Of a DNA stretch of 64,000 nt, positions 29,552-57,755 are shown piece by piece; within the stretch, counting starts at the first letter, position 1; the number at the start of each line of letters is the position of its first letter. Made by a program: the position numbers and the translations under genes. Source of the DNA: Verrucomicrobiia bacterium (GTDB lineage: Bacteria > Verrucomicrobiota > Verrucomicrobiia > Limisphaerales > DASXHY01); the NCBI GenBank assembly GCA_035765675.1, contig DASTXC010000082.1:9851-73850 (forward strand). Reading direction: 5' to 3'. A model generated the notes under the pieces. It had not been told where the DNA came from, did no database searches, and worked only from the letters and a program-made list of their open reading frames with translations.

Positions 29552-32500
29552 ATGAAGAACCTTCTCAAATCAACCTGGAAAAGTTACGCGAGCCTGGCCG
29601 CATTGGCGGTCGCAGGTTTCGCCGGTCCGGCGTCAGCCGCGCTGACGGTCACCCTGGAAAATCAGTCCGGCACGGCGAACACCTGGCCGTTCACACCGGC
29701 GTGGACAGTGAATACAAACAACAGCCTGATCGCGGGGCTCGCGCCGAGCCAGGCATTGGGAGATTTCAGCAAGGAACTCGCGGGGCGAAGCGTCAATTCG
29801 CTGACGCTTAATACGAATCTGACCATCGGAATCGTTCAGCCCAGCACGTCCACGACGACGAATTATGTGACCTGCGGAAATGGCAGCGGCGCGGGATCGC
29901 TGGTGGTTTACACATTGCCGGCTTCTTCGTTTGGTTATGATCTTACGAACATTACCGTTTACGGGGGGTGGGCGAACAGTGGCCGCGACGCGCAGGCTTA
30001 CACGGTTTTATATTCCACCGTCGGAAGTCCGAATGACTTCAAGTATCTGACTTCCGTATCTTACAATCCCACCGTCCCGGCAAACACGCCGAGCTCCAAT
30101 CGTGAAATCATTCGCGACAACGCGGGTGGAGTCATCGCCGCAAATGTGGCGTCCGTGAAATTCGATTTCGATGTGCCGGCAGTTGAAAATGGCTTCGTAG
30201 GATACGCCGCAATCACGGTGGGAGGAACAGCTTCGACGGGTGCCGAAGGTCCGGGCATTTCGATTTCAACCGCCAACCAGAACAGCCCCGCGGCCTTCAC
30301 GCCGAACTGGGTTCTGGAAACGCCCAATCTGATTGCGGGGCTGGCGCCGACTGCGGCGGTCGGCAATTTCAATCAGGAAGATTCGGCTGGAACTTCCGTG
30401 CTGACCGATGGGTTGATCGCTGAATCCGGAAATCATGCCGGGTTTGCAACGGCGGGCGCCACGGGCGGTGGTTCTCTGGTTTACACGCTGCCGGACGGTG
30501 AGAACGGAATCGATGTGACCAACGTCACGCTTTACACCGGCTGGGGCAACGCGGATCGCGATGGGCAATATTTCATTCTTTCCTACGCCACTGTTTCCGC
30601 GCCCACGGCTTACATTCCGATCACAACCGTTTTTTACAATCCCGCGGGAGTGACTGGATTTTCAGCGAACCGCGTTTCCATCAGCATGAACAACGGTCTG
30701 CCGCTGGCCACGGCGGTTTCCAAATTGAAATTTGATTTCGCCGGTCCGGTCGGAGCGAACCAGTTCGATCATGGTTATTCCGGCTATTCCGAAATCGTGG
30801 TGCAAGGAACGGAATCAAGCACGCCGCCCGCGCCGCCGTCTCCGTATCTCACCGAGGACACTTTGCCTTCTTTCATTGAAACTGTGGTCGGCGACCAGGT
30901 GGTCTTCACCGCCGCGTTCAGCAATGCTCCGCCCGCGAACGTTCAATGGGAGTTCATCAATGCTGAAGGCACGCTGACGAACGATGTTCCGGGAGCCACT
31001 TCCGAAACCCTGACACTCAATAACGTGCAGTTGTCAGATGCCGGAAGTTATCGCCTCAAAGCGGTGAATGCGACCAACAATGCGGCAGCACCTTCCTACA
31101 GTCTGGCCCGAACACTTTCTGTTAAACCGACTCCGACGGCAGTGAATGGAATCATTGTAGAAACCGCCAACCATCTGGGGGCTGGCGTAAATGGCATCAG
31201 CACGAACTTCTTTCCCACCTGGTCGGTCGCTACGGACGATGACCTGATCCTGGGCGCAACGCCGATTCCCGGCGATGGCGATTTCAGTGATCCCAGCACC
31301 GGGTTCGATCCGATTCTGCTGACGGATGGCACGTCTGGTTTTCTCAATTACTGGCCGAACGTGGGCGGCAGCGAAACGCTGGTGGTCATGGGCGGCAATC
31401 GCGGCAAGTCCGTCACCTACACACTTCCTCCGTCCACTTATGGTTATGACATTACGAACATTGTGGTTTACGGCGGCTGGGGCGACAGCGGTCGCGATCA
31501 GTCGAAATACCAGATTCTGTATTCCGTCGATGGCAGCATGCCATCGCTCCCGCTCATCACGGTCGATTACAACCCGAGCATTCCGTCCGGCCTGCAATCC
31601 GCGACTCGCACAACCTTGGTTCCCACCTCGCCGGGTGGACTGGTTCGCAATGTGACGGCGCTTACATTCAACTTCGATGTGAACGTAGAGAACGGTTACG
31701 TCGGTGTTTCGGAAATCGTGGTGGGCGGACAACTCTCGCCGCCGATGCCGACGCTGGCTCAGGACATTTCACCTCTCTCTGCGGAAACGGTGACTGGAGA
31801 TCACATCACGCTGACCGCGAGTTTCAATGGCGCGGACAGTTACCAATGGCAGAAAGACGGAACGAACATTTCGGATGGTCCGGATATTTCCGGCGCCACC
31901 ACGACGACGCTGACGTTGAGCCAGCTTCAGACTTCAGACACGGCCACCAACGGCGGCTATCGGCTCGCGGGAATCAATTCCTCGGGCACGGCCTACAGCA
32001 CGCCTTGCGCGCTGGTGGTAAAACCGCTGGCGCCTGCGACCAACAACGTCGTCATTTCCGCGGCGGGTCAGATTTATCTGCATCACGCGACCTACACGCC
32101 GGACTGGATTACGGACACCAGCGCGAACAACCTCATTTATCTGGCGCCTCCGACGGCGACGAATGGCGGCTTCGGACTGGAACCATTTGCGACCACGCGT
32201 GACATCAGTGGGTTTACAGATGGGGGTTCGCTCACGCTCAGTGTCACGGACGACGGCTCTCACAAAACCACCAGCGGAAATTATCTCACCGCGGGCAATG
32301 GCACCGGCCTGGATGGAACCCGTGATGAAAATGGAAATTATCTCCACAGTGACGCCGGACATTTCGTGGTTTATCAACTGCCGGCGTCCGCAAATGGTTA
32401 CGATCTGACCAATATCACCACCTATGGCGGATGGGCGGATGCGGGACGGGATCAACAGGCTTACGTTGTCCTCTATTCCACGGTGGCGAACCCGGGCAAT

Positions 32501-33496
32501 TTCCTGCCGCTCGGAACCGTGAGTTACAATCCCGTGAATCCCGCCGACGGAACCTCGGCAACGCGTGTGACACTGACGCCGGGTTCAGGATCGATGGCGC
32601 AGAACGTCGGGGCGGTGATGTTTGATTTCCGCAGTCCGGGAACGGAAAACGGCTTCGGGGGTTATGCCGAAATCACGATCAACGGCGTTCCTTCCGCCAC
32701 TCCAGAAACACCGCAGCCGGTGGTCACTGCCGAGAATCAGACCAACACGTTCACGTGGACGGTTGAAAGTCCGAACCTGATTGCGAATCGTTTGCCGGAC
32801 AGTTTCGGTCCGGGTCTCTTCACGAACGAAGGTTGTAACATTACCAACCTGACCGACGGCATCATTGGTTTCGGCGCGGGATTCGGAACGAGCCTCGGCG
32901 CGGGCGGCGCTGCGGTTCCATGGATCATCTTCAATTCTCCGAACGGTTGGGATCTGACGAACATCGTGGTTTACTCGCTCTGGCACGATTACGGTCGTGA
33001 CGGACAGTTCTACACCGTCAGCTATTCCACCTTGTCTGATCCTTCCGCGTTCGTGCCGTTGAGCACGGTTTACTTCAACCCGGATGTGCCGCAGGACGGA
33101 ACCGACAGCGGCAATCGCGTGGAGATCTCGCCCATCGTCGGTCAAACCAAACTGGCGAGCAATGTCGCGGCGGTGAAGTTTGATTTCACCATTCAAGGAA
33201 ATCAGGACTTCGCCTGGTCGGGCTATTCAGAAATCGTGTTGCAGGGCGTGAATCTGAATGCGGCCACGCCACCGCTGGTCGAAGGCGTTCGCGTGACCGG
33301 TGGAAATCTGGTGGTCACCGGCACCGGTTCGGCGAACTCGGACTACACGATTCTCACGACGACCAATCTGGCAAAGCCCTTGGCTGAGTGGACGATCAGC
33401 ACCACGGGTGTGATCGATGGCGCCGGCAGCTTCTCGAACGCGATTCCGGTTGACCCGGCCACGCCTGCGCGATTCTTCCGCGTGCGAACTCCTTGA
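29552..33496 (+). CDS. secreted non-catalytic repeat protein (protein A): 5 copies of the unassigned module, 2 Ig-like domains, C-terminal FFRV domain
   Basis: The ATG at 29552 gives the signal peptide [30 protein letters not shown]. The track ORF starts at a GTG at 29495. I recognised no catalytic motif. See the module features and findings. Confidence 0.85.
29642..30226 (+). repeat. unassigned beta-sandwich-like module, copy A1 (subtype Ia)
   Basis: [109 protein letters not shown]. Confidence 0.8.
30257..30808 (+). repeat. unassigned module, copy A2 (subtype II)
   Basis: [102 protein letters not shown]. Confidence 0.8.
31151..31729 (+). repeat. unassigned module, copy A3 (subtype Ib)
   Basis: [113 protein letters not shown]. 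Confidence 0.8.
32042..32686 (+). repeat. unassigned module, copy A4 (subtype Ia with a longer insert)
   Basis: [114 protein letters not shown]. Confidence 0.8.
32720..33247 (+). repeat. unassigned module, copy A5 (subtype II)
   Basis: [98 protein letters not shown]. Confidence 0.75.
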
Positions 33497-33626: not shown

Positions 33627-34505
33627 ATGAACAAGAGAAATGCTTCCACGGGATTTCGAAAGCACCGGGTTCGCCGTGCTTTCACACTGATTGAATTGCT
33701 GGTCGTGATTGCGATCATTGCGATTCTGGCCGCGATGCTTCTGCCTGCATTATCCAAAGCCAAGCGGAAGGCTCTGGGCACTGCCTGCTCAAACAACATG
33801 AAGCAGCTCACGCTCGCGCTTCATCTTTATGCGCTTGATTACAAGGACAACATCGCGCCCAATCGCGGACAATCGTTGGATTCGTGGGTTCCCGGCGGCA
33901 CGTTCGGGTACGATGTCCGCGGCGGTTCCGGCGTGACCAACCTTGATAACATCCGCTCCGCTTTGCTTTTTCCCTATAACCAATCCCTGGGAATTTATCG
34001 GTGTCCGGGAGACAAAGATTCCGTGATTGATCCAACTCTCGGCAGTCTGGGCCAGCGCGTCAGGACTTACTCGATGAATGGAATGATGGGTGACAATCGA
34101 GGTTTCGGCGGCGGGAATGATCCCGTGCATGCGGACATTCCCGAACATCGCACGCTGAGTTCGGTTCAAAATCCGGGGCCGTCGGACGCGTCTCTGTTCG
34201 TAGATGAGCAAGGCAGTTCAAGCACGGTGGAATCGCAGACCAGCATCGATGACGGGTATTACGCCGTGAACTTCCAGGATCGCGGCCAGACCTGGCGGAA
34301 TGTGCCGGCGAGCCGTCACGGCAACTACGGCCAGTTTTCATTTGCGGATGGTCACGTCGGCAAAATGAAATGGGTGGAACCGAAAACCCAATTCCTCAAA
34401 GGATTGAAAGCAAGTTCTGGAAGGTTCAATGATCAGGATCTGCATCAAATCTGGAACTCGACTTATCCCGAAGGTGGTTATCCCGGCAAGCCGGGACCGT
34501 GGTGA
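33627..34505 (+). CDS. pseudopilin-like protein: prepilin-type N-terminal cleavage/methylation domain plus H-X9-DG motif
   Basis: The ATG at 33627 gives [49 protein letters not shown], a class III signal of the G/A-FTLIEL type. The C-terminal [16 protein letters not shown] is an exact H-X9-DG. The family is massively expanded in Planctomycetes and Verrucomicrobia. Confidence 0.9.
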
Positions 34506-34684: not shown

Positions 34685-37600
34685 ATGAAGCAACGCCGAA
34701 TGGTCGAATGCAAAATTACGGGATATCTCGTCGCGTGTCTGGCCTTCGCTGGTTCCGCTTCGGCGGCGTTGTTGATCAACACCACGAATCAAACGGGCAA
34801 TCTTACTTTCCATCCGGATTGGAGTCTCGCATCGAACAGCCTGATCGCTGGGTTGGCACCGAGCAGTTCTTTCGGAAATTTCAGTCTGGAAGCACCGGGG
34901 CGCAATGCTCGGTCACTAACCTCGGGTGGCGATCTTTCAATTGAACAGATCCACGGCACCTCCGGCACGACGGCCAGCACCAATTACGTTACCTGCGGGA
35001 ACGGCAGTGGCGCGGGATCAGTGCTGGTTTATACACTGCCGGATTCAGCGAATGGTTACGATCTCACCAACATTACGGTTTACAGCGGCTGGCAGGACAA
35101 TGGCCGCGATGCGCAATCGTGGACTGTTTCGTATTCCACTGCCGCCAATCCGGAATTTTTTGTTCCGCTCACAACGGTTGCTTACAATCCTCCGGTTCCA
35201 AGCGGCGTTGCCACGGCCAATCGCGTAACACTGATTCATTCCGCAGGCGGACCTTTCGCGACCAACGTGGTTGCCTTGAAATTCGATTTCGCCGCGGCTT
35301 CCGTGGAAAACGGCTACACGGGTTATGGCGCAATCACGGTTCAGGGAATGCCTTCCACCAATGTCGTCATGCCGCTGCCCGTCATGGTTTCCGCCCAAAG
35401 CCAATCCGGCGGCGGATCATTCATTCCCGATTGGATTATTGAAACGGACAGTCTCGTCGCGGACCGGATGCCGAGTTTCACCGGTTCGGGCAATTTCGAA
35501 TTCGAACCGGAAACCGGCGGCTTGCCGATGTTGACGGACGGCGTGTTCGGACTCACCGGAACCACTGCGTCATTTGCCACCTGTGGCAACGATGCGGGAC
35601 GGTCGCTGGCGTATTATCTCGATGGCGCAACGCTGACAAACATTGTGGTTTACAGCGGCTGGGTGAATCCGGATCGCGACGGCCAGTTCTACAACGTTTA
35701 TTATTCCACGCTCTCCGCGCCGAACTCGTTCCTTCCGCTGGCCAGCGTGAACTACAATCCCGTCGCTTCCGGAAACTCGGCGGCTCGCGTTTCCATTGCC
35801 ACCGCGAACGGTACGCCGCTCGCGACAAATGTGGCGTTCGTGAAATTCGATTTCACACCACAGAACCATTCGGTGGATCACGGCTATTCGGGTTACGCGG
35901 AGATCATTCTGCAAGGGTTCGGCGGCGGCTCCGCATCGCAGCCTCCGATCAAAATGCAAACGGATTTTCCCGCGAGCACTTCCGACAGCGCCGATGCCGT
36001 GCTGGTGTTCAATGAGATCATGTATCATCCCGCCGCCAATGAAGCCGGAATGGAATGGATCGAGTTGTACAATCAGCTCGCGGTCGATATCGATGTTTCG
36101 AACTGGCGGATTGCCGGCGACACGGAGTTTACGTTTCCTGCGGGGACCCGAATTGCCGGACGCAGCTTTGTCGTTGTCGCGCGAGATCCGGCGCAGCTTC
36201 AGGCAGCAACGGGTTTGAGCTCGAATGTATTCGGACCTTTCGTCAGTCCGTTGGACAACAAAGGCGGCACTCTCCAATTATTCAACAATGCCGGACGATT
36301 GATGGACGCGGTCGAGTTCGGAACCGAAGGTGAATGGCCGGTTACACCCGATGGCGCGGGGCCTTCGCTGGCCAAGCTGGATCGGGATTGGGGATCCGCC
36401 GCCGCAGCGAACTGGCGCGCGAGTGTTCAAAACGGAGGCACGCCGGGATTTGAAAATTTTCCCACCGCGCCAACGCCGGCGACATTGATTTTCAATGAAG
36501 TTTCCGGTGCGACCAATTCGATGTGGGTTGAACTCAGAAATCGCGGAACGAATTCAATTTCGTTGAGCGATTGCATTCTTCACCACGATGGTGAAACCAA
36601 CACCGATTACATTTTTCCTCCCAATGTCAGTCTCGACGCCGGTGCGTTTTTTGTGCTGTCGAATGATGTGCTCGGTTTTCAGTCTCCGGCTTCGGGTGAA
36701 AAGCTGTTTCTGTTTGGCCCCGATCATTCAACGGCCTACGACGGTTTCGTGTTGAAAAAAACTCCTCGTGCGCGCGCGACGGATGGAACAGAACGCTGGT
36801 TCGTTCCTTCGCCAACCACGCCCGGCACAACGAACCGTTTCGCATTTCAAACCGATATCGTGATCAACGAAATCATGTGTCATCACCAGGCGTTCGCGCC
36901 GGCGGACACCAACGCGATTCCGATTGAGAATCCGGAAGAATGGATTGAACTCTACAATCGCGGGACGAATGTCATCGACCTCACCGGATGGGAAATTGCG
37001 GGCGGAATCGACTTCGCGTTTCCCGTGGGCACAACGCTCGCGCCGGACGCTTACCTGGTGATTGCGAACGACGCGGCCAATTTATCGGCGCTTTATCCAA
37101 GCGCGAATGTGATCGGAAATTTCAACGGACGACTCGGTGGCGATGATCAAATCACGTTAAAGGATGCTTCAGGCAATCCGGCGGATGAAGTGCATTATTA
37201 CACATCCGGACATTGGCCGGAATTTGCCGGCGGCGGAGGTTCCAGTCTGGAATTGCGTGATCCGAACGCGGACAACTCAAAAGCCGAAGCCTGGGCCGCG
37301 AGTGATGAATCCGGAAAATCCTCCTGGCAAACTTACACGTATCAAATGATTGCGCAGCCGAGCGCCACTCCCGCGCCGGACAATCAATGGCGCGATTTCG
37401 TGCTCGGCCTTTTAGGCGATGGCGAATGCTGGGTGGACGATATTCGTGTGATGCAATCGCCCGGTCAGAATCCCACCGATTTGATTTCCAATGGCGATTT
37501 CGAAAATGGACTTAACGGCTGGCGCGTGTTGGGCAATCACGGTCGCAGTCGTGTGGAATCCGATCCCAATAATCCCGGCAATTATGTTCTGCATGTCGTC

Positions 37601-40483
37601 GCGTCAGGTCCGCAGGAGCACATGCACAATCACATTGAAGCGACGTTGGTGGACGGATGCGCGGTGACGAATGGTTTGCTTTACGAAGTTTCTTTTCGCG
37701 CGCGCTGGATTGGCGGAAACAACCGGCTGAACACGCGCCTTTATTTCAATCGCGTGGCACGAACAACGCCGTTGCTCACACCGCGATTGAACGGCACGCC
37801 CGGCGCGGTCAATTCGCAACGCATTTCCAATCTCGGCCCCACCTTCGCGCGATTTCAACATCAGCCGATCGTTCCGCGAGTGAATGAGCCAGTGACTGTT
37901 TTCGTTCAGGCAAGCGATCCGCAGGGCGTAAGTGATTGCACGGTCTGGTGGTCGGTGAATGGCGGTGCGTGGTCCAGCGCGGCGATGTCACTCACGAACG
38001 GCGTCTATTCAGCAACGATTCCCGGATTCGCTGCGAACAGCCTGGTGCAGTTTTATGTCAGCGCGACGGACACTCTGGGCGCGATTGCGACTTTTCCCGC
38101 GCGCGGTCCGGATTCCGGAGCGTTCTATCGTGTTGATGATGGCTTCGCCAGTTTCTCACCTGTTCACAGCCTTCGCATCCTGATGTCGCCAGCAAATGTT
38201 GCGTTACAGAACGCCGTCACGAACCTGATGAGCAACGAGAATCTGCCCTGCACGCTGATCTACGATGAGCGTCAGGTTTATTACGACATTGCCGTTCGCC
38301 TCAAGAGCAGTGAACGCGGACGCGTGGTGGCGGCGCGCATCGGTTTTCATCTGGAATTCAATCCGGATAATTTGTTCCGCGGCGTGCATCCCGTGATGCT
38401 CGTGGATCGATCCGCGGGTGATTTCAGCCTGCCCGGGGAAGAGATGCTGGTGAAACACATGTTGTCCCATGCGGGGTTGCCGAGTGTGAATTCCGATTTC
38501 ACCCGAATCATTGCTCCGCAGAGTGCGCAGAACGGGATGGCAATACTCTCGCCGCGGTACGAAGACAATTTTATCGCGACAGCAATTCCGGATGGAGATG
38601 AAGGCACGTTCTACGAATTCGAGTTGACGTATTTTCCAAAGACCGCCGACGAACACGGTTACAAATTGCCGGAGCCAGACAATGTTCAAGGAGTCGAGAT
38701 CTCCGATCTTGGCGATGACAAGGAACGCTATCGCTACAACTTCATGATCAAGAATCATCGTGCGGCTGATGATTACTCGGCCCTCATGCGCTTTGCCAAA
38801 AGCTGGAGTCTCAACGGAACGGCATTGGACGAGCAGACGGAACTCACCATGGACATGGATGAATGGCTGAACGTCTATGCGATGATCGCGCTGAGTGGTG
38901 TCACCGACATGTACACGTTTGGAGGAAATCATAACCTGATGATGTATGTCCGTCCCGGCGATGGACGGATTTTGTATTTCCCATGGGACATGGATTATGC
39001 GTTTACGCGCGGCGTCACGGATCCGCTGATTGGAGATCAGAACCTCGGAAAAATTGCGAATCGTCCGGCAAATCTGCGCCGCTTCTACGCGCATGTGTTG
39101 AATCATATCAGTAGCACCTTCAACACGGACTATCTGGCGGACTGGGTGAGTCACTATGGGGGACTGTACGGTCAGGATTATTCCTCTGACCTGAGTTACA
39201 TCGCCAACCGCGCGGCATACGCGTTGGGAATGATTGAAGACGCAACTGGCGATGTTCCCTTCACGCTCAACGAAACCAATGTTCTGAACGTTACGAGCAA
39301 TCGGGTGACGTTAAGCGGCACCGCGCCGGTGAACATCACTTCCATTCTGGTGAATGGAAAAACTTTTCCGGTGACGTGGGCTTCGCTTTCCAACTGGATC
39401 GTTCAGGCGACCCTGAACGCGCCGACCAATCATTTGGAGATTCAAGGATTCGACCTGAATGGAAATCTGATCACGAATCTTTCGACGGTCGTGATCTTTG
39501 ACGGTTTCGTGCCCGAGTCCATCACCATTTCCATAAATGAATGGATGGCGGATAACAGTTACACGCTTACGAATCCAGTGGGCGGAAAATTCGATGACTG
39601 GTTCGAATTGTATAACTACGGCACGAACACTGTGGATCTCGGTGGAAATTATTTGACCGGGGATCTGACTGACAAAACCAAATTCCAGATTCCCGACACG
39701 CATCAATACCTTGTTCCGCCGGGAGGATTTTTTGTGGTTTGGGCGGACAATGCCGATGAAGCCAATGCGATTGGTCGTCCTGATCTGCATGTGAATTTCA
39801 AACTGAGCAAGTCGGGCGAGGCCATCGGTTTGTTTACAGCGGATGGCACTTTGATCGACGCGGTCAGTTTTGGTCCGCAAGTCACTGATGTTTCGCAAGG
39901 ACGATTCCCGGATGGCGCGTCGGAAATTTTCTCAATGCCCACGCCCACGCCGGAGACGAACAACATTTTTCCGAACACCGCGCCGGTGTTGGCAGCAATC
40001 GGCGACAAATACATTCACGCTGGCCAGGTGGTGCAATTTCTCGCGCAAGCCAGCGATGCGGAAAATGCCTGGCAGACATTGACGTTCAGCCTGAGCAACG
40101 CGCCTTCCGGCGCAGTCATTCAACCGTTGACCGGCGCATTTTCATGGATGACATCCAGCGCCACGGCACCGGGCACAAATTTCATAACCATCCGCGTAAC
40201 CGACAACGGAACGCCGCCGCTGAGCGATGCAAAAACATTTGCGGTAATCGTTGCGGTATTGCCGCGATTGACGGAAGCCAGCGCGAACGGCGATGGAAGC
40301 GTTCAGTTTTCTTTCCACACGCTGCCCGCTCAGGATTACCAGCTTCAATATAAAAACCGTCTGACTGATGCCGTCTGGATTCCGCTGGGAGAAATTATTT
40401 CCGGCACGGGATCGGATGTGATCGTTCACGACAATGCGGCTGAAAATTCACAGCGGTTTTATCGACTGATGGTTTTGCCATGA
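34685..40483 (+). CDS. giant secreted LTD / CotH-family protein (CotH-2, protein B) with 2 N-terminal copies of the unassigned module
   Basis: 1932 aa. Signal ..YLVACLAFAGSASAA. Modules B1 and B2. Four LTD-like segments (VFNEIMYHP..MEWIELYNQLAVDIDVSNWRIAGD; IFNEVSG..MWVELRNRGTNSISLSDC; VINEIMCHH..EEWIELYNRGTNVIDLTGWEIAGG; INEWMADN..DDWFELYNYGTNTVDLGGNYLTGD). CotH core (..FHLEFNPDNLFRGVHPVMLVDRS..GGNHNLMMYVRPGDGRILYFPWDMDYAF). Cadherin- or Ig-like segment (NTAPVLAAIGDKYIHAGQVVQF..). C-terminal domain ending QRFYRLMVLP. Confidence 0.9.
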   Translation: MKQRRMVECKITGYLVACLAFAGSASAALLINTTNQTGNLTFHPDWSLASNSLIAGLAPSSSFGNFSLEAPGRNARSLTSGGDLSIEQIHGTSGTTASTNYVTCGNGSGAGSVLVYTLPDSANGYDLTNITVYSGWQDNGRDAQSWTVSYSTAANPEFFVPLTTVAYNPPVPSGVATANRVTLIHSAGGPFATNVVALKFDFAAASVENGYTGYGAITVQGMPSTNVVMPLPVMVSAQSQSGGGSFIPDWIIETDSLVADRMPSFTGSGNFEFEPETGGLPMLTDGVFGLTGTTASFATCGNDAGRSLAYYLDGATLTNIVVYSGWVNPDRDGQFYNVYYSTLSAPNSFLPLASVNYNPVASGNSAARVSIATANGTPLATNVAFVKFDFTPQNHSVDHGYSGYAEIILQGFGGGSASQPPIKMQTDFPASTSDSADAVLVFNEIMYHPAANEAGMEWIELYNQLAVDIDVSNWRIAGDTEFTFPAGTRIAGRSFVVVARDPAQLQAATGLSSNVFGPFVSPLDNKGGTLQLFNNAGRLMDAVEFGTEGEWPVTPDGAGPSLAKLDRDWGSAAAANWRASVQNGGTPGFENFPTAPTPATLIFNEVSGATNSMWVELRNRGTNSISLSDCILHHDGETNTDYIFPPNVSLDAGAFFVLSNDVLGFQSPASGEKLFLFGPDHSTAYDGFVLKKTPRARATDGTERWFVPSPTTPGTTNRFAFQTDIVINEIMCHHQAFAPADTNAIPIENPEEWIELYNRGTNVIDLTGWEIAGGIDFAFPVGTTLAPDAYLVIANDAANLSALYPSANVIGNFNGRLGGDDQITLKDASGNPADEVHYYTSGHWPEFAGGGGSSLELRDPNADNSKAEAWAASDESGKSSWQTYTYQMIAQPSATPAPDNQWRDFVLGLLGDGECWVDDIRVMQSPGQNPTDLISNGDFENGLNGWRVLGNHGRSRVESDPNNPGNYVLHVVASGPQEHMHNHIEATLVDGCAVTNGLLYEVSFRARWIGGNNRLNTRLYFNRVARTTPLLTPRLNGTPGAVNSQRISNLGPTFARFQHQPIVPRVNEPVTVFVQASDPQGVSDCTVWWSVNGGAWSSAAMSLTNGVYSATIPGFAANSLVQFYVSATDTLGAIATFPARGPDSGAFYRVDDGFASFSPVHSLRILMSPANVALQNAVTNLMSNENLPCTLIYDERQVYYDIAVRLKSSERGRVVAARIGFHLEFNPDNLFRGVHPVMLVDRSAGDFSLPGEEMLVKHMLSHAGLPSVNSDFTRIIAPQSAQNGMAILSPRYEDNFIATAIPDGDEGTFYEFELTYFPKTADEHGYKLPEPDNVQGVEISDLGDDKERYRYNFMIKNHRAADDYSALMRFAKSWSLNGTALDEQTELTMDMDEWLNVYAMIALSGVTDMYTFGGNHNLMMYVRPGDGRILYFPWDMDYAFTRGVTDPLIGDQNLGKIANRPANLRRFYAHVLNHISSTFNTDYLADWVSHYGGLYGQDYSSDLSYIANRAAYALGMIEDATGDVPFTLNETNVLNVTSNRVTLSGTAPVNITSILVNGKTFPVTWASLSNWIVQATLNAPTNHLEIQGFDLNGNLITNLSTVVIFDGFVPESITISINEWMADNSYTLTNPVGGKFDDWFELYNYGTNTVDLGGNYLTGDLTDKTKFQIPDTHQYLVPPGGFFVVWADNADEANAIGRPDLHVNFKLSKSGEAIGLFTADGTLIDAVSFGPQVTDVSQGRFPDGASEIFSMPTPTPETNNIFPNTAPVLAAIGDKYIHAGQVVQFLAQASDAENAWQTLTFSLSNAPSGAVIQPLTGAFSWMTSSATAPGTNFITIRVTDNGTPPLSDAKTFAVIVAVLPRLTEASANGDGSVQFSFHTLPAQDYQLQYKNRLTDAVWIPLGEIISGTGSDVIVHDNAAENSQRFYRLMVLP
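34769..35347 (+). repeat. unassigned module, copy B1 (subtype Ia)
   Basis: [120 protein letters not shown]. Confidence 0.8.
35381..35917 (+). repeat. unassigned module, copy B2 (subtype II)
   Basis: [113 protein letters not shown]. Confidence 0.8.
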
Positions 40484-47471: not shown

Positions 47472-49534
47472 TCACCGCTCACATATCGGGTTCTGATTCC
47501 ATTGAGCCACAGGCTCAACGCTACACTTGTAATGTCGAGGCTGGGTCTCGACCTCAATCATCTGCCGCAAAACTGTTTTGTCGTGCGCGCTTTGTGCTTT
47601 TTCTGCTCATCGCCCTTGTGATGCCGCGAATCTCGGCGGCCACGACCGCGATGATTTTCTGCAATGGGGATATGGGCAGCGTGAATGGTTTGACGGCGTC
47701 GCAGATCAATGGGTTGAGAGCTTCGGGAATGACAACGATAGTGGTGTTCACAATGGGCGTCGCGGCCAACGGCGATTTCACGTACGGCGGGGTCATTTGC
47801 AGCAATGGTGTTTATGTCGGGCCTTCAAACTGGGGCGCGCTGCTCAATCAATGTCGCGTCAAACCCTCGAGCGTCACGCGCATTGAAATGTGCATTGGCG
47901 CATGGGGTGATTCGAGCTGGACGCATATCAAGGATCGGATCGCGGCGGACGGAACGAACTCCAACACCGTTCTCTACAAAAATCTGCTGGCGTTGAAAAA
48001 CGCGCTGGGAATTGACGCGATCTGCAACGACGACGAATCCGCGTATCACTCCGCGTCCGCCATTCAGTTCGGCAAAATGTGCGGAGCGGTGGGCTTGAAA
48101 CTGACGCTGTGTCCTTACACCCGGCCGACCTACTGGCAGGCGGTCAAAGCGGGCCTGGGCGACATCTGCGACGCGGTTTATCTGCAATGTTACGACGGCG
48201 GCGCGGGGAACAATCCAGCCACCTGGAACACTTACTTCGGCGGTTTGAAAGTCATTCCCGGTTATTGGGATTGGGAACGGGACACAACTTTTCTGACGAA
48301 AATGCAGGCCGGGAAAAACGCCGGTTGCACGGGCGGATTTTATTGGCCGTCCTGCACGGGCTGCAATCCGCCGGCGGATGCCAACGGCATGAAGCAGTAC
48401 GCCGATTGGATCCTCAAGACATTCAATCCTACGGTGACGCCGGCAACGGCTTCAGAGGTTGTGGGTGGCGAGGCGTCTTTCACTGTGGATTTCAGCGGTG
48501 AGGACTGGAGTTATCAATGGAAGGTGGTTCGTGGCGGAATGACGAATGATATTCCTGGCGCGACCACGAACCGGGTGACGCTGGCAAATCTGCAACTGAC
48601 CAACACCGCATCGTATTTTGCGGTGCTTTCGAATGCCACTGGAGTTTCCGTGAGCAGCGCGGGTTCGCTCACCGTTTCCAGTCTGCCGGCCGCGGTGAAC
48701 GGCGTGATTGCTTCCTTTGCAGCGCAAACCGGTTTGGGAAGTGTCGCGACGAATTTTGTTCCCACCTGGAACGTGCGCCCGGGCAGTTTGATCGCAGGCC
48801 AACTGCCGAACACGGTTGGCTCTGGAAATTTTGGTTTTTATGGCGCCAGCGGTGCGCTTTCGGTGCTGACCGATAACAGCTTCGGTTGGTTGAATTTCTG
48901 GCCGAACGTGGGCGGCAGTCCCAGTGAAGTTACCTGCGGCACGGTATCCGGCGGCGCGGGGCAATTCGTGACTTATCACCTCGGCGGTTCGGACAACGGT
49001 TATACTCTGACGAACATTATGGTTTACGGCGGCTGGGGCGATGCGGGCCGGGATCAACAGGCGTTCACGATTTATTATTCCACGGTTACATCGCCCGCGA
49101 CATTCCTGCCGTTGAGAAGTGTGAACTTCAATCCGGCGAATCCGCTCGCCGTGCAATCAGCCACGCGAACGACGCTGATGCGATCCAATGGCGCGCTGGC
49201 CACGAATGTCGTCGCGGTGAAATTCGATTTCACGACGCCGCCCGCGGAAAACGGCTATTGCGGTTATTCGGAAATTGCAATCTACGGTTTTCCAACGCTT
49301 CCGCTCGCATTGCCGACAATGCTGAGCGTAAATTTCCAAAGCGGCGACGATTTCATTGTGAACGTGGAAGGCCTGATTGCCGGACGCGGTTATCTCCTGC
49401 AAAGCCGCACCAATCTTTCTTCCGGCGACTGGATCACAGAATGGGAATTTGTTGCCGCGCAGCCCACGATGTCATTGACCAATTCCCTTAATCATTCCGG
49501 AGAGAAATTTTATCGCATCATCGGATTCCAATGA
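47468..49534 (+). CDS. secreted protein E: Cys-rich TIM-barrel-like head, Ig-like domain, unassigned module, C-terminal FYRI domain
   Basis: The ATG at 47468 overlaps the upstream stop (ATGA). The hydrophobic signal-like segment FVLFLLIALVMPRISAATTA begins only ~40 aa in, so the true start is uncertain. The head (about 47641-48430) shows an alternating beta/alpha pattern with 13 Cys and a strand ending GIDAICNDDES. Confidence 0.75.
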   Translation: MITAHISGSDSIEPQAQRYTCNVEAGSRPQSSAAKLFCRARFVLFLLIALVMPRISAATTAMIFCNGDMGSVNGLTASQINGLRASGMTTIVVFTMGVAANGDFTYGGVICSNGVYVGPSNWGALLNQCRVKPSSVTRIEMCIGAWGDSSWTHIKDRIAADGTNSNTVLYKNLLALKNALGIDAICNDDESAYHSASAIQFGKMCGAVGLKLTLCPYTRPTYWQAVKAGLGDICDAVYLQCYDGGAGNNPATWNTYFGGLKVIPGYWDWERDTTFLTKMQAGKNAGCTGGFYWPSCTGCNPPADANGMKQYADWILKTFNPTVTPATASEVVGGEASFTVDFSGEDWSYQWKVVRGGMTNDIPGATTNRVTLANLQLTNTASYFAVLSNATGVSVSSAGSLTVSSLPAAVNGVIASFAAQTGLGSVATNFVPTWNVRPGSLIAGQLPNTVGSGNFGFYGASGALSVLTDNSFGWLNFWPNVGGSPSEVTCGTVSGGAGQFVTYHLGGSDNGYTLTNIMVYGGWGDAGRDQQAFTIYYSTVTSPATFLPLRSVNFNPANPLAVQSATRTTLMRSNGALATNVVAVKFDFTTPPAENGYCGYSEIAIYGFPTLPLALPTMLSVNFQSGDDFIVNVEGLIAGRGYLLQSRTNLSSGDWITEWEFVAAQPTMSLTNSLNHSGEKFYRIIGFQ
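48704..49288 (+). repeat. unassigned module, copy E (subtype Ib)
   Basis: [128 protein letters not shown]. Confidence 0.8.
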
Positions 49535-52500
49535 AACAACACACGATCACGAACTCCTTCGGTTATTCAATTGTCATCGGCAAAGTGGAAAGAACGTCAC
49601 TTTGCGGAATGATAACAGGGACTCATGTAATTCGCCCTTCCGCAGTGCGAGTGTTTGCGTTGTTTGTCGGATTTATTTTAACCGCGACGCAGTTGTCCGC
49701 TGATGTGATTCCGGTGACGGACAGCAATGTGTTGAATGGATTGACCCGCAATAATTGGGTTCTGCAAAACGACTTCATCAGCACGAGCGTCGGTGGAGCA
49801 TCGCTTCAAGTGGCCTTTGACGGAACAGATCAGGTCACGCTGCAACTCGACGACGCGCACCTGTCCGGAATCACAGCGTCTCGTTGTCCAATCATCGCGT
49901 GGTCCGTGAACGGCGGCCCGATTCAAACGCATCAACTCACGACGGCGGAAAGTTCGATTGCATTGTGCTCGGATGTTCCGAATCCGGAGATCGATCTGTT
50001 CGTGAAGGGAATGTCGCCGTTTGAAAATCGTTATTCAGGTGACGTGCCGCCGAACTCGGTCAAGATCACCGGGTTTATTGTAGATTCCGGAGGTTCAACT
50101 CGCGAGATCGAGCTGCCGCAAAAAGTCTGGTTGAACATCGGTGATTCAATCATGTCCGGCGACGCCGCGGCGTATGCGACGGGGCAGGGACGTCCGGCTG
50201 ATGACAGTTGGGCAGCTTCGGATGATGCGCGAGCGAGTTACGGTTATCTGCTGGCGAAACACTTTGGTTATCGTGAAGCGCGGCTGGCGTTTGGCGGATA
50301 CGATTGGGGCGGCGGTCTCGCCGGCGTGCCTTCGCTCACCACGTTGATTGATCAGAAAACTTCGACGATCAGCCGCTTGAAAAATGGCTTGTTGGATCCG
50401 GTTCCTGAGGTGGTGTTGATCAATCTCGGTGAAAATGGTGCGCCATCTTCAACCGACGTGACGCAGGCGCTGACGCGATTGCGCAGCCGAGTCAATCCTC
50501 GAACAAAGATTATCGTGATGATTCCCGTCGCGGGAACGGCGCGCGTTCAGATCACGCAGGCGTTCAGCAGTTATACGAATGCCACGCCGGATGCGAATGC
50601 GTTTCTCGTCGATTTGGGATCATTGAACTTTTCAACAGCCGACGGACAACATCCCACGGCTGAAGGGCATCAGACGATTTATCAGGCCGCGCTGCCGGTG
50701 CTGGAATCGATTGTCAATCCCGCGCCGTTCCGGATTTGTGCGATGGGCGATTCCATCACCGCGGGTTTCACGGACAATCCCCAATGGACGGTTCCGTTTG
50801 AGTTTGGTTATCGCAGCGGACTTTACACCCGGCTCACCAACAGCGGCATGAGTTTTCAATTCGTCGGCAGCTCACCGCAACCGTGGGATGGAATCGATGG
50901 AACCGTGACCAACACGCCGTTGGTTGATCTGCGCGAAAGTGATCAGGATCATCACGAAGGCTATACCGGCAAGAACACCGCGTTCTTCCTGGCCAACGTG
51001 GCGAACTGGATTGGCGTGGATCGTCCGCACATTCTTCTGCTGCAAATCGGGATCAATGACATTGGCAAAGGCAGCACCGGCGAGCCGACGGGCGCGGAAC
51101 TGAACCTCAGCAATATCATCGCGACGGTCGTGAGCAACAGTCCGCAGACCCATGTGATTGTCGCGCAGATCACGCCTTACAGCAGCTACACCGAGGCGAT
51201 TGTTCGTTACAACAATTACATTAAAGACACGCTTGTTCCTTACTTCGCCGGGCTCGGAAAACGAGTCACGACCGTGAATCAATACACGAACCTGTGCTTT
51301 CCCGGAACAACCACGATCGATGCGTCGCTGTTTGCGAACGGCATTAATCATCCCAACAACATCGCCTACGATCGCATGGCGCAAACGTGGTTTGAAGGAA
51401 TCCAGGCGCTGAATCTCCCGCCTTCGCCGCCAACGCAACTTCCAATCGTAGTCGCGAACACGCAGCCCGCCACAGCGAAGGTGTTTGTCGGTGAGGGCAT
51501 TTCTTTCAATGCCGCTTTCGAAAGCGATCAGCCGATGGTTTATCAATGGCACAGGATTCAAGGCGGAGTGACGAATGCCATTCCGGGCGCGACGAATTCA
51601 ATTCTGACGCTGATGAATCTGCAAACGACGGATAACGGTTCGTACTTTTTGCAGGCGTCGAATGCATTGGGCATTGCGTCCAGCGCGTCGAGTTCGTTGA
51701 CGGTTTCCGATCTTCCAGCGGCGGCGGATAATATCATCACCGCCATCGCGGAGCAGACCGGCCGCGGCATTGGCGTGTTCACGCCGGGATGGATTTTCAC
51801 CACGAACCACAGCCTTATCGCGGGCAAAGCGCCGAGCAGTGCGATTGGAAATTTCAGTCTCGAAGCGCCAGGAAGAAATGTGAATCTGCTGACCTCCGAT
51901 GACGATGGCGCGTTGTCCGTGATTGTCAGCACTTCGGGCGCGACGAGCAGCACGAATTACGTCACGTGTGGAAACGGCAGCGGAGCGGGTTCATCCGTGA
52001 CCTACACGCTGACGGGTTCAACCTACGGATACGATCTGACCAACGTCACGGTGTCTGGCGGCTGGGCGGACAACGGCCGCGATCAGCAGGCTTATACGGT
52101 TTTTTATTCCACGGTGATGGACCCGCAGAATTTCCTTCCGCTGACGACGGTGAACTTCAATCCGGAAGTCGGCAGCGGTCGCCAATCAGCAACACGCGTT
52201 GCAATTCTGCCTGCGACCGGAACGCTGGCGACGAATGTGGCCATGGTGAAATTCGATTTCAGCAGTCCGGCGTCGGAACATGGTTATTGCGGATACAACA
52301 AAATCATCATTGAAGGTTCTGCCGGTGCGCCGGTGACGATTGTGACGAATCCGCCGCTGCCGGTGATGATTGAATCTTCGCAATTTGGCCCGAGTTCCAG
52401 CGCATTTGATGGAGCGATTGCGTCGAACCTGATTCGCGCTGGTCAAAGCTCACTGGCCGGCGTCGTCGTCAGTCACGGTCCTTCCATTTCATCTTTATTC

Positions 52501-53115
52501 ACCACGGCCGGTTTGAATGATGGCAGCGCGGCCAACAACAACAATCGAACGTATTACGGCAATTCCGATCCATCAGGCGGAAATCTGCCGGTGACGATCA
52601 CTTTCAATCTGAACACCAACAGTGCGAGCGGATACGACATCACGCGCATTCAGTCGATCACAGGTTGGTCGGATTCGAATCTGGCGAATCTGCGTTATGA
52701 GCTTCTGTTGTCGTTCAAAGGCGGACCGTTTGTCAGTTATGGAGAATTCAGCAGCGCAACCAATTCGACGGCGTTCAACAATGGAAACAACGCAATCCTG
52801 CAAACTTTGACCAGCGACACGGGTTCGATCGCGCGGGGCGTTACTGCCGTGCGATTTATTTTCTCGAATCCTGGCGGTTCGCAAGGCGGTTCGGGAGGCA
52901 CGTTGATTCGTGAGCTTCAGGTTTTCGGAACGCCGGTGGTCGGGTTGTCTTTTCAAAAGGCGGGCGACAATCTTCTACAATTAAGCTGGCCGCAGGGGAT
53001 TCTGCTGGAGGCGACGAATATTACTGGCCCGTGGATCACCAATGCCAGCGCGACTTCGCCTTACACGAACGACCTTGATGCGCCGGAGAAATATTTCCGC
53101 GTGCAGATTCAGTGA
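49531..53115 (+). CDS. secreted protein F: beta-sandwich + SGNH esterase, second SGNH domain, Ig-like domain, two module copies, C-terminal YFRV domain
   Basis: The ATG at 49531 overlaps the upstream stop (ATGA). An internal ATG at 49609 gives a better-placed signal peptide (MITGTHVIRPSAVRVFALFVGFILTATQLSA). SGNH-1 at ~50125-50709 (NIGDSIMSGD..LINLGENG..DGQHPTAEGH). SGNH-2 at ~50728-51408 (CAMGDSITAGF..LLLQIGINDIG..INHPNNIAYDRMA). Confidence 0.85.
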   Translation: MKQHTITNSFGYSIVIGKVERTSLCGMITGTHVIRPSAVRVFALFVGFILTATQLSADVIPVTDSNVLNGLTRNNWVLQNDFISTSVGGASLQVAFDGTDQVTLQLDDAHLSGITASRCPIIAWSVNGGPIQTHQLTTAESSIALCSDVPNPEIDLFVKGMSPFENRYSGDVPPNSVKITGFIVDSGGSTREIELPQKVWLNIGDSIMSGDAAAYATGQGRPADDSWAASDDARASYGYLLAKHFGYREARLAFGGYDWGGGLAGVPSLTTLIDQKTSTISRLKNGLLDPVPEVVLINLGENGAPSSTDVTQALTRLRSRVNPRTKIIVMIPVAGTARVQITQAFSSYTNATPDANAFLVDLGSLNFSTADGQHPTAEGHQTIYQAALPVLESIVNPAPFRICAMGDSITAGFTDNPQWTVPFEFGYRSGLYTRLTNSGMSFQFVGSSPQPWDGIDGTVTNTPLVDLRESDQDHHEGYTGKNTAFFLANVANWIGVDRPHILLLQIGINDIGKGSTGEPTGAELNLSNIIATVVSNSPQTHVIVAQITPYSSYTEAIVRYNNYIKDTLVPYFAGLGKRVTTVNQYTNLCFPGTTTIDASLFANGINHPNNIAYDRMAQTWFEGIQALNLPPSPPTQLPIVVANTQPATAKVFVGEGISFNAAFESDQPMVYQWHRIQGGVTNAIPGATNSILTLMNLQTTDNGSYFLQASNALGIASSASSSLTVSDLPAAADNIITAIAEQTGRGIGVFTPGWIFTTNHSLIAGKAPSSAIGNFSLEAPGRNVNLLTSDDDGALSVIVSTSGATSSTNYVTCGNGSGAGSSVTYTLTGSTYGYDLTNVTVSGGWADNGRDQQAYTVFYSTVMDPQNFLPLTTVNFNPEVGSGRQSATRVAILPATGTLATNVAMVKFDFSSPASEHGYCGYNKIIIEGSAGAPVTIVTNPPLPVMIESSQFGPSSSAFDGAIASNLIRAGQSSLAGVVVSHGPSISSLFTTAGLNDGSAANNNNRTYYGNSDPSGGNLPVTITFNLNTNSASGYDITRIQSITGWSDSNLANLRYELLLSFKGGPFVSYGEFSSATNSTAFNNGNNAILQTLTSDTGSIARGVTAVRFIFSNPGGSQGGSGGTLIRELQVFGTPVVGLSFQKAGDNLLQLSWPQGILLEATNITGPWITNASATSPYTNDLDAPEKYFRVQIQ
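51730..52317 (+). repeat. unassigned module, copy F1 (subtype Ia)
   Basis: [121 protein letters not shown]. Confidence 0.8.
52363..52929 (+). repeat. divergent discoidin-like module, copy F2 (subtype III)
   Basis: ..LNDGSAANNNNRTYYG..LPVTITFNLNTNSASGYDITRIQSITGWSDSNLANLRYELLLSFKGGPFVSYGEF..GVTAVRFIFSNPGG..GTLIRELQVFG. The strand order matches the other modules, and the ending is typical of F5/8 type C domains. Confidence 0.6.
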
Positions 53116-53139: not shown

Positions 53140-56100
53140 ATGAAAAATAAAAAAATCCTGTTTGCAGTGTGTTTGTGTCTGTCGGTTGGAATCGGCGTGT
53201 CGTGGTTGCGCCAATCGAAAAGTCGATCAGCCGAACATTCGGCTGCTGTGACTGCGGGGACGAATGCGACGGCGATCATGACCAACGCATTTGCAAATAC
53301 CGCGCCCGTTCCGTCCGCGATTGGCAACACGCAAGGAGTTGTTTCGTCCGAGATGAATCCCTCAATCAATCCGTATGCCGCCGGACTGCGTGAGCCAGGA
53401 AAAGCCAAGCGCGAATGGGATGAGCGTTTCATCGAGAGTTTTCGATCTTCGAATCCCGGTAATGCCGTGCGATTTGAACTGACGGGCGGCGTGGTCGCGA
53501 AAGGCGTTGTGAAAATTATTCAGCGCGACGGCGCGAACGTGAGCTTTGTGTCCGGTGAATTGAGCGAGCCAGAAATCGGCAAATTCTTTTTTCTGACTCC
53601 ACCGGCCGGCGGCAAAGCGGGCAAGGCCGTTGGCGTTGTGGAGTTCCCCGGCAGTCAAATTGCCTATCGCGTGGAACCGACGGGCTCAGGCGGCGAACCG
53701 GAATTGTGGGAGCGGCGGATGGATGAAGTTCTTTGCCTGAGCATGCCGGAAATCAGTGATCCGGTTATGGCCGCCGCCGCGACGAATGAGACCTTGAACA
53801 TTCCACCGCTGCGACCCGATCTCGTGCCCGATTACGTTCCGAGTTACAACAGCAACATTGTTTCGCTTCAGAGTTATCCCGGCTCCTCCGCAGTGCTGCT
53901 GCTGGATTTCTTTGGCGGTTATACCGTTCATTGGGGCGGCGTTGAATACGCGCGTCCGCCGGTAAGCAATGAAACGATCAAGGATATCTGGAAACGCGTC
54001 GCCGAAGACTACATGCCGTTCAACATCAACGTGACCACGGACATCAAGGTTTACCAGGCAGCGCCTGCCGCGAGCCGGCAACGTTGCTGTTACACGACCA
54101 CGCCGGTGACGGCAGCGGGTGTCGCGTATTTTGGCTCGTGGAACTGGGGCAACGATGCGGTGTGCTGGTCGGTTTATTATGTTGGAAAAAATGCGGCGGA
54201 AGTTGGCTCGCATGAAGTTGGACACACGTTGGGATTATCGCACGACGGACGCACAACGCCGGTGGAGGAATATTTTGGCGGGCACGGAAGCGGTGACACA
54301 GGCTGGGCGCCGATCATGGGCGTGGGATATTATCAACCCGTCGCGCAATGGAGCAAAGGTGAATACGCTTCGGCCAATCAACTTCAGGACGATCTCAACA
54401 TCATCACGAGCAACAACAACAATGTGGGTTATCGCGCTGATGACACGGGCAACACACTCGCGACGGCGCGTTATCTCGAAATCTATTCCAACAACACGGC
54501 GTCCGCGGAAGGCGTGATCGAACGCACGGCTGATACGGATGCGTTTCAATTCACGACCAGCGGCGGAATCGTGACGCTCACGGCCAAGCCGGTTGGCGAC
54601 TGGGCTGATCTCGCAGTTTCGGCTACGCTGGCAAACGCGGCGGATACCGTCATTGCGAGCAACAATCCGCAGTCCACTCTTTCGGCGAGCATCACCACCA
54701 ATCTCGCGGCCGGTTCCTACACGTTTCGGGTCACGGGCGCTGGACGGAACAATCCCTTGAACAACGGTTTTTCCAGCTACGCGAGCCTCGGATATTATTC
54801 CGTCACCGGCAGTGTAGCAGGCGCGCGATTGCCGACGCGGCTCAGCGTTGTCGAGCACGCGCCGAACAATTCTGAGGTTGGGGCCGTCCCAGCCATCAAT
54901 CCCAACAGCAGCCCGCTGCTCTATACGATCACGTCCGGCAATTCAGGCGGGACGTTTTCCGTGGACGACTCCGGCGTGGTGCGCGTGGCGGACAACACTT
55001 TGCTGGATTATTCGCGGCTGGCGACCAACACGATGTATGCGGTGCAATTCGAAGTGTTCATGAACATTACCAACGTGAACAATCCGGCATTGACTGAGCT
55101 GAATCGCCGCGTGGTGATTGCGGTGGAAAAATTCTATCCGGTCGTGCCGATGTTGTTAACCGCCACGGCAGGCACAGGTTTGCGAATCAATTTAAACTGG
55201 ATGGGAGCGCAGGACGCGATCAGTTACAACGTGAAACGTTCTACCCTTCACAATGGGCCGTACACGGTTATCGCGAGTCCGACCGACACGAGTTACAGCG
55301 ACCTCGGACTCACCGATGGCGTGAGATATTACTACGTCGTTTCAGCGGTGAACACGAACGGCGAAAGCGCGGATTCGTCGGAAGCGAACGCGCTGGCGCA
55401 ATCTGTGGCAGGTTATGGATTTGAAACGCCGAGCATTGGCTCCGGCAACCATCAGTACAATCCGTCCGGCGGATTCTGGACATTTAATGGCGCGTCCGGA
55501 AATGGTTCGGGAATCGTGGCGAACGGCAGCGCGTTTTCAAATCCGAATGCGCCCGAAGGAAGTCAGGCTGCGTTCGTGCAAAGCTATGGAACCATTTCCC
55601 AGACGCTCTCGGGTTTCACTCCGGGTGTGAACTACACCATTACGTATTCTGCCGCGCAACGGTCCGGTCAGGATCAACACGGCGGCGAATCGTGGAATGT
55701 GGTCGTTGATGGAAACGTGATCAAAAGCAATAACCCCGGTCCGACAAGTTACACGACTTACAATGCGACATTCATCGCCACTGCAACAACACATGCTCTG
55801 GCGTTTGTTGGAACCGATCTGGCCGGCGGTGACAACACGGTTTTCATCGACAATGTGCGCTTCGATCCGCCTTTGCAGCCGGCGCCGGCGACCGTTGCTT
55901 TGACTCAGCCGGCGAACGGAGCCGGTTTCGCGGAGACTGCGCCGATTTATTTGATGGCGACGGTCACGACGAACGGAAATCAAATCGACGGAGTGGAGTT
56001 TTACCTGGATAACATCACGCGTCTGGGCGAAATCACCACCGCACCTTTCAAGTTCGCAATGGCGAATGTGACTCCCGGAAAACACACCGTCTTCGCTCGC

Positions 56101-57750: not shown

Positions 57751-57755
57751 ATTTT

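Follow-up and report, generated by a model that had tools for sequence, protein, structure and literature searches.

Several protein-sorting systems of bacteria, namely T9SS, exosortase and rhombosortase, were discovered through lineage-wide C-terminal domains of the kind described here. The CTDs of the Bacteroidota T9SS (type A, TIGR04183/PF18962; type B, TIGR04131/PF13585) are Ig-like C-terminal beta-sandwiches of about 70-100 amino acids on Sec-exported hosts; they are portable over unrelated enzymes and adhesins, occur in many copies per lineage with few fixed positions and low conservation, and are carried by large surface-type enzymes but not by periplasmic-type ones. To our knowledge, cleavable sorting domains such as these have no internal copies, and we know of no T9SS in the phylum that hosts the domain studied here. 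The PEP-CTERM/exosortase system likewise has a position rule, its signal standing at the C-terminus of secreted proteins and combining, in about 25 amino acids, a PEP motif with a TM helix and a basic cluster. PPC domains (PF04151) are small C-terminal beta-sandwiches that occur in one or two copies on secreted enzymes of diderm bacteria, and are thought to aid secretion before they are removed. Type I dockerins, which are calcium-binding helical repeats of about 70 amino acids, are portable C-terminal modules of many unrelated glycoside hydrolases and work through a common protein partner with no sorting protease.

The Verrucomicrobiota of soil and freshwater (Limisphaerales/Pedosphaerales) break down polysaccharides on a major scale, and we know of no route by which their large enzymes reach the cell surface or stay there. 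We analyzed a 64,000-nt stretch of DNA from this phylum (hereafter, the window) in which six large secreted proteins of one sugar-degradation locus have in common a small fibronectin-like C-terminal domain, which we call the tail. It resembles T9SS CTDs in being a predicted Ig-like beta-sandwich of similar size at the C-terminus of putatively Sec-exported hosts, in its portability over unrelated enzymes and adhesins, in its many copies per lineage, in its low conservation with few fixed positions and in its presence on large surface-type but not periplasmic-type enzymes; it resembles PEP-CTERM in its position rule, PPC in being a small C-terminal beta-sandwich, dockerins in its portability, and the FN3 (PF00041) and Big families in fold class.

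The six tails of the window

The tails stand at the ends of the following ORFs:

1765..1989, minus strand: tail domain of CotH-1 (ORF 1762-5688; B-type)
33263..33493, plus strand: tail domain of A (residues 1260-1336 of the frame segment in the HMM envelope; ORF 29495-33496; A-type)
40259..40480, plus strand: tail domain of B (ORF 34685-40483; B-type)
49307..49531, plus strand: tail domain of E (ORF end 49534; nearest to B-type)
52930..53112, plus strand: tail of F (ORF 49531-53115; short, weakest of the six)
57529..57747, plus strand: tail domain of G (ORF 53140-57750; G-type)

The translations match exactly the C-termini quoted in a preliminary description of the window, both that of A (33278-33493) and the other five, whereas the tail length given there, about 60-72 amino acids, extends to about 62-77 in the HMM envelopes. 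By subtype, the window holds an A-type tail, the B-type tails of CotH-1, B and E, a G-type tail (G-type consensus LSWPxDHxGWRLQxQTN...GLGTNW...NGSVFFRLVYP) and the short F form. Close outside relatives (P0002, P0056, P0086 and P0114) are 51-60% identical to the tail of A. A, E, F and G also have in common a domain of about 190 amino acids just before the tail, and the six tails are therefore not six independent cases.

We built an HMM from the six tails and searched all 878 six-frame segments of the window with it. It matched those six alone, each match ending at a stop codon; no internal copy was found among these segments, and the tail is absent from the GH106, GH78, pseudopilin and other ORFs of the window, as had been stated earlier. 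Since this profile contains its own targets, the search was repeated with profiles made from outside sequences only. The outside B-type profile (A6) retrieved CotH-1 (E = 2e-27), B (7e-19), E (1e-9) and A (4e-6), all at the C-terminus, and the outside G-type profile (A5) retrieved G (2e-34); neither profile had any further match in the window. Five of the six tails were thus recovered, at the extreme C-terminus, by profiles that did not contain them. Leave-one-out profiles within the window recovered CotH-1, B, E and A, and missed G and F.

When compared by hhalign, the G-type and B-type outside profiles correspond in register along the entire domain, with a modest score (E 3e-4, probability 39%), which suggests, with moderate confidence, that the two types are distant subfamilies of one domain. 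F stands further off, with a leave-one-out E of 0.21 and no match from either A5 or A6. Its hhalign matches to the G-type and B-type are partial, an 'LQLSWP' segment being G-type-like and a 'TN..W...YFRV' segment B-type-like; F looks like a short mosaic, with its first strands G-type-like and its last ones B-type-like, and its membership is not statistically secured. With F as a weak member, the results support the earlier proposal of a shared tail, as one homologous domain that is also portable (see below).

Predicted fold and relation to described families

The AlphaFold2 model of the A tail, computed from a 124-sequence alignment, is all-beta with six strands (pLDDT 91.9), and the model of the G tail is likewise all-beta (pLDDT 88.7). 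Foldseek searches against the PDB returned Ig, BIg and FN3 matches only (TM 0.45-0.69, E of at least 4e-3), the best of them being FN3 domains (Tencon, neogenin, DCC) and the BIg of SiiE, with cytokine receptors also present. The tail is predicted from these models to be a six-stranded Ig/FN3-like beta-sandwich of about 70 amino acids. Its conserved segments, G-x-x-[YW]-x-[LV]-[QE], N-L...W and R-[FY]-[FY]-R-[VLI], lie in or beside predicted strands, and the third of these forms the final strand, with the stop codon 0-5 residues on and usually after a Pro. The shared ending [FY][FY]R[VLI] is not a terminal peptide signal; in the models and their structural matches it corresponds to the last beta-strand of the sandwich.

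The tails have no TM helix and no PEP or LPXTG motif, in agreement with the first reading. A pattern scan of the window found no PEP-CTERM, the six tails contain no hydrophobic helix, and an LPXTG-like sortase motif is absent from the six C-terminal sequences. PEP-CTERM signals do occur in the same genomes, with 12 examples in the related loci, all on small proteins of 240-400 amino acids; unlike these, the tail is a folded domain of large proteins. It also differs from dockerins in being all-beta.

We found no model in Pfam or NCBIfam that covers the tail, whether the search was made with the whole proteins, with the isolated tails at a cutoff of E<=10 or with 124 aligned members at E<=1, and PDB sequence searches with the tail gave nothing convincing. 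By sequence, then, the tail appears to be an unnamed domain family that is absent from Pfam, NCBIfam and the PDB. We know of no prior description of it, and none was found by a literature search, although absence there is no proof.

The T9SS CTD models PF18962 (Por_Secre_tail), PF13585 (CHU_C), TIGR04183 and TIGR04131 matched none of the proteins, tails or 124 members, and no T9SS CTD structure was among the top 50 Foldseek PDB matches of the A and G tail models. The tail further differs from T9SS CTDs in the tandem and internal copies of its relatives (see below). PPC (PF04151) gave no HMM match to the proteins, tails or 124 members either; in contrast to PPC, tail hosts extend far beyond peptidases, and a single protein can have an array of as many as 10 matched stretches. 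Since none of these HMMs matches, we regard the tail as neither a T9SS CTD nor a PPC member.

The G-type pattern 'P-T-N-[IL]...L-x-L-S-W-P...Y/W-x-L-Q...F-x-R-L' recalls FN3 strands A, B, C and F. However, the tail is about 15-20 residues shorter, has six strands rather than seven in its model, remains below the Pfam threshold and is strictly C-terminal. In the Pfam search, none of the six tails scored above the gathering threshold of fn3 (PF00041), and 5 of the 124 members had sub-threshold fn3 matches (best E 0.0012); weak matches to fn3 and Ig models were seen in a few of the 124. By hhalign, no sequence relationship was found between the tail and the Pfam fn3 domain of G itself (probability 11%).

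Family size, placement and hosts

When 1.84 billion representative proteins were searched exhaustively with HMMER, 7,598 were retrieved at E<=1e-3, and a pattern scan of one genome per GTDB species confirmed at least 570 stretches of the G-type. All named family members and loci are Verrucomicrobial, mostly from Limisphaerales/subdivision 3. The tail is a real and large domain family of Verrucomicrobiota, unnamed and strongly tied to the C-terminus, and its profile would improve the annotation of thousands of 'hypothetical' C-termini even if its function were modest.

The placement rule holds in three samples. The first consists of the best 78 loci of the G-type scan, from Verrucomicrobiota subdivision 3/Limisphaerales MAGs (1.23 Mb), and is biased to the G-type subtype and its clade because the locus search used G-type sequences only. 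A general profile found 114 copies in these loci, all of them single, and 112 of the 114 end within 3 residues of the stop codon; about 36 of the copies lay in flanking genes that had not been selected. One clear internal G-type copy was seen in this close clade (L053). Of the best 149 of the 7,598 proteins, 141 have no more than 8 residues between the end of the last copy and the C-terminus, and the same holds for 109/109 proteins of a second sample, which was retrieved with the B-type profile. These counts support a placement at the extreme C-terminus far above chance. The terminal tail is also kept in 108 of the best 120 CotH-1 homologues, those without it being mostly fragments or having diverged ...FYRVVxP ends; where these 120 have a plausible organism name, it is Verrucomicrobial.

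The preliminary description had the tail always at the extreme C-terminus and in this it was right for the window, where 6/6 are single terminal copies, and nearly so for the close clade (112/114), but not for the family as a whole. Almost all of the best 149 proteins have 2-9 tandem copies. These array proteins are adhesin-like, with Big_9, cadherin-like, DUF11, fn3 and MBG domains; few are named, and the names are Verrucomicrobiota or Verrucomicrobiae. The 149 proteins contain 306 internal copies, 197 of which carry [FY][FY]R[VLI], and their consensus is that of the terminal copies (G-x-x-Y-x-[LV]-Q...N-L...W...R-F-Y-R-V). The motif therefore belongs to the fold and not to the C-terminus. 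Internal occurrence of the motif had been named beforehand as an observation that would speak against a sorting signal, and in part this is what was found.

Two candidate marks of the terminal copy were rejected. A terminal-only sequence signature was ruled out by a column-by-column comparison, in which the consensus of terminal and internal copies was equal, and the final Pro was ruled out since a Pro also starts the linker after internal copies. In arrays of at least four copies, the identity of the last copy to the middle copies is 34%, as compared to 52% for the first copy and 60% among middle copies (n=28, p=0.003). The divergence of the last copy thus exceeds the edge effect seen for the first, and the terminal copy is therefore not simply a repeat array fraying at its end.

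Tails are found on very different proteins. Among tail pairs that are at least 50% identical, 2,000 of 3,223 are on bodies without BLAST similarity. Nine mutually dissimilar bodies were scanned, of which seven had Pfam matches and two did not; the bodies that bear tails include GH76, glucose/sorbosone dehydrogenase (GSDH), GH28, PATR, BNR, a combination of ricin, discoidin and LamG, and GH97. The G-type tails have a median identity of 56% across unrelated proteins from different MAGs. A comparison of E with G in the window gave 66% identity for the 200 amino acids upstream of the tail and 23% for the tail itself, where the two belong to different subtypes, and we therefore conclude that the tail was exchanged at the linker.

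The hosts appear to be exported proteins. Of 86 complete tail-bearing ORFs, 73 pass a strict signal-peptide heuristic and the remaining 13, whose starts are non-ATG or ambiguous, have hydrophobic stretches at the N-terminus, so that the expected restriction of the tail to signal-peptide proteins was confirmed in this sample. In the window, signal-peptide-like N-termini were seen in all six tail hosts, as well as in the tail-less GH106 (three) and GH78 enzymes. Those of the six hosts are:

5632..5688, minus strand: putative signal-peptide N-terminus of CotH-1, MKFLRSALLAAAMVFSVHG, by eye and a simple heuristic
29552..29644, plus strand: putative signal-peptide N-terminus of A, counted from an internal Met, by eye
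34685..34771, plus strand: putative signal-peptide N-terminus of B, by eye
47588..47647, plus strand: hydrophobic putative signal-peptide stretch of E, FVLFLLIALVMPRISAATT, by eye
49609..49701, plus strand: putative signal-peptide N-terminus of F, from the internal Met of MITGTH..., by eye
53140..53205, plus strand: putative signal-peptide or signal-anchor N-terminus of G, by eye

For E the true start codon is uncertain, as the TTG listed for it, at 47225, would make it overlap gene D.

Possible roles of the tail

The reading that we favor, to which we give a little less than an even chance, is that the tail is a position-dependent export or surface-retention module that is read by a common envelope partner. 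The host proteins would be exported by Sec via their N-terminal signal peptides, and the tail would then be recognized, as a C-terminal module, by this partner. Through this recognition, the large multidomain enzymes and the adhesins would be singled out to pass to the surface or to be retained there, and signal-peptide enzymes that have no tail (the three GH106 and GH78) would remain periplasmic. In its logic such a module would be like a T9SS CTD or a PPC domain, though it is in neither family. In the adhesin-like relatives the domain would also have multiplied into internal arrays, as a structural repeat, with a distinct terminal copy kept. Even if its function were more modest, the tail would be a simple marker in Verrucomicrobial PULs for telling enzymes that are probably extracellular or on the surface from those in the periplasm.

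We favor export or retention because a spacer or an ordinary binding module leaves the near-absolute terminal placement in three independent samples unexplained, because G-type tails are about 56% identical on unrelated proteins, and because tails were swapped at the linker and the terminal copy of arrays is distinct. The internal and tandem copies and the generic structural matches speak against it, and the terminal position could in part reflect the addition of domains at the 3' end of genes for signal-peptide proteins. As to the original suggestion of a 'sorting or anchoring signal', placement, portability and conservation are in its favor and it is from these three that we infer such a role; a signal made of the terminal motif is not supported, as the motif also occurs internally.

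Alternatively, the tail may be a generic Ig/FN3-like spacer or 'end cap' of extracellular proteins with no role in localization, which would be terminal mainly through 3'-end domain addition to signal-peptide genes and through the internal expansion of arrays. The FN3/Ig-like fold with its generic Foldseek matches, the weak fn3 and Ig Pfam matches of a few members, the tandem arrays of adhesin-like proteins that have Big_9, cadherin-like, DUF11 and fn3 domains, and the single consensus for internal and terminal copies are all consistent with this. A spacer, however, would be expected to be scattered along the proteins, as are the Ig_3, LTD and fn3 domains of the same hosts, whereas the tail is terminal in 112/114, 141/149 and 109/109 cases. 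The identity of about 56% between G-type tails on unrelated bodies is also higher than expected for a spacer, and neither the swap of tail subtype at the linker between E and G nor a terminal array copy that is an outlier beyond the first-copy edge effect fits well with this explanation, which we consider rather unlikely.

Similarly improbable, in our estimate, is that the tail is a non-catalytic binding module, for a carbohydrate or non-covalently for the envelope (LPS or an outer-membrane protein), that is neither a secretion signal nor cleaved. Such a module would tether enzymes to their substrate or to the cell, and tandem copies would raise avidity. This would agree with the presence of the tail on polysaccharide-degrading enzymes of PUL-like loci, with tandem arrays like those of many binding repeats, and with a high conservation that fits one common ligand. 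The invariant aromatic residues (W, Y, F) also point in this direction, but they may be mere core residues of the sandwich. In a profile search the tail gave a marginal match, over 50-74 residues, to CBM32 discoidin modules of Paenibacillus chitosanase (E 0.005), but this is in the chance range and covers a common strand-turn motif; the tails had no F5_F8_type_C match in Pfam, and no HMM or profile match extended over the CBM32 jelly-roll of about 130 amino acids. Against a binding module there are also the hosts that are not CAZymes (CotH kinase-like, metallopeptidase-like, GSDH and PATR), and the confinement of the tail to the protein end (112/114 and 109/109), since binding modules are not normally restricted to the last residues of a protein.

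A more specific form of the export or retention reading, and an unlikely one at present, is that the tail is the domain by which Sec-exported enzymes and adhesins are recognized as cargo, or attached, in a surface route specific to Verrucomicrobia. It would do the work of a T9SS CTD while being evolutionarily separate from it, and its partner would perhaps be among the massively expanded H-X9-DG (DUF1559) prepilin-type proteins. If true, such a route would provide a first handle on how giant extracellular proteins of PVC bacteria are placed and on what DUF1559 proteins do; a literature search on T9SS in Verrucomicrobia and on DUF1559 function found nothing relevant. The window contains one gene of this family, between A and B:

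33627..34505 (likely), plus strand: prepilin-type H-X9-DG (DUF1559) pseudopilin gene (Pfam N_methyl, SBP_bac_10; H-X9-DG at aa 301)

This pseudopilin is a possible functional partner of the tail, judging from gene neighborhoods. The H-X9-DG family is the most recurrent neighbor of tail genes, occurring in 35 of the 78 loci; 29 of 114 tail genes have an H-X9-DG gene no more than 1 kb away, where random placement in the same loci gives 19.7 +/- 3.2, and all 29 of these neighbors are on the strand of the tail gene. That the tail serves a pseudopilus or type II-like system made of these proteins, as its element of recognition or attachment, is quite improbable, since the enrichment is modest (about 1.5-fold within the 78 loci), the genes of these loci are co-oriented anyway, and 85 of the 114 tail genes have no adjacent pseudopilin.

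One short sequence in the family, P0061 (101 amino acids, on a 328-kb contig), was considered as a free-standing tail gene; we read it as the remnant of a disrupted gene, because it lies directly 3' of a TraG/TrwB-like gene and 5' of an arabinofuranosidase-like gene. Finally, the window itself presents a two-tier picture, circumstantial as it is, in which the large multidomain proteins carry the tail and the exo-acting GH106 and GH78 enzymes do not.

Genes accompanying the tail

The tail genes of the window lie among regulatory and pseudopilin genes that recur in the related Limisphaerales-type loci (L001-L078; 1.23 Mb, 114 tail copies) found with G-type sequences, the tail subtype of protein G:

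27063-29276, minus strand, histidine kinase (HisKA_3/HATPase_c) and LuxR-type response regulator, just upstream of A
33627-34505, plus strand, prepilin-type H-X9-DG/DUF1559 pseudopilin gene, between tail proteins A and B

The pseudopilin family was the commonest recurring neighbour of tail genes, being found in 35 of the 78 loci. A pseudopilin gene lay within 1 kb of 29 of the 114 tail genes, as compared to ~20 expected, and in all 29 pairs the two genes shared the same strand. Homologous regulator-kinase pairs were also recurrent (regulator in 26/78 loci, kinase in 14/78), and this recurrence suggests that the regulator, the giant secreted proteins and the pseudopilin form a conserved cassette.

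Repeated domain preceding the tail

A repeated domain of ~190-200 aa, which had no Pfam match and ends in '...ENGYCGYSEI.v.G', is common to the large secreted proteins A, B, E, F and G:

A, aa ~35-1251, several copies
B, aa ~16-428
E, aa ~500-697
F, aa ~740-1120
G, aa ~1255-1464

The end of this domain looks discoidin-like. In A, E, F and G the domain is immediately followed by the tail, and these four terminal tails are therefore not independent cases. Over its first half, the G-type tail profile (A4) gave a marginal match (E ~0.005) to CBM32 discoidin modules of a Paenibacillus glucanase/chitosanase (PDB 4zy9, 4zxe, 2rv9, 4zz5 and 2rva), spanning the strand-turn motif 'W...y.iqvS.d....tnW.tv'.

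Tail exceptions, PEP-CTERM and locus labels

Within the close clade, one clear internal G-type copy was found in L053 (frame segment 2-3361, aa 531-604); it reads '...EFFRLIYPPMPPIQ...' and is followed by 516 further residues, in a protein that may be a gene fusion. A TraG/TrwB-type coupling-protein gene immediately precedes a lone G-type tail ORF of 101 aa (P0061; L079, 6001-6306), which looks like what is left of the 3' end of a tail-bearing gene after disruption by a mobile element.

The same genomes also encode small proteins (240-400 aa) with classical PEP-CTERM ends (VPEP, hydrophobic helix and RRxRR; L008, L009, L014, L017, L022, L028, L034, L039, L046, L064, L066 and L068), so that, beside the tail, this clade has one or more established systems of C-terminal sorting. 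Twelve loci with Verrucomicrobia-type G-type tails are titled Bifidobacterium/Bifidobacteriaceae, Sulfotelmatobacter or Acidiferrales (L017, L026, L027, L030, L038, L044, L051, L059, L061, L063, L065 and L078), and are likely mis-binned or mislabelled MAGs.

Gene starts of E and H

The listed TTG start of E (47225) produces a 247-nt overlap with gene D. Since the only signal-peptide-like stretch in the region 47225-47650 lies at ~47588-47647, the gene probably begins around 47468, if not at a neighbouring non-ATG codon. A further ORF encodes protein H, which has no Pfam match and no tail:

57630-60341, plus strand, protein H, 903 aa, with a signal-peptide-like segment

As listed, the H ORF begins before G has ended.
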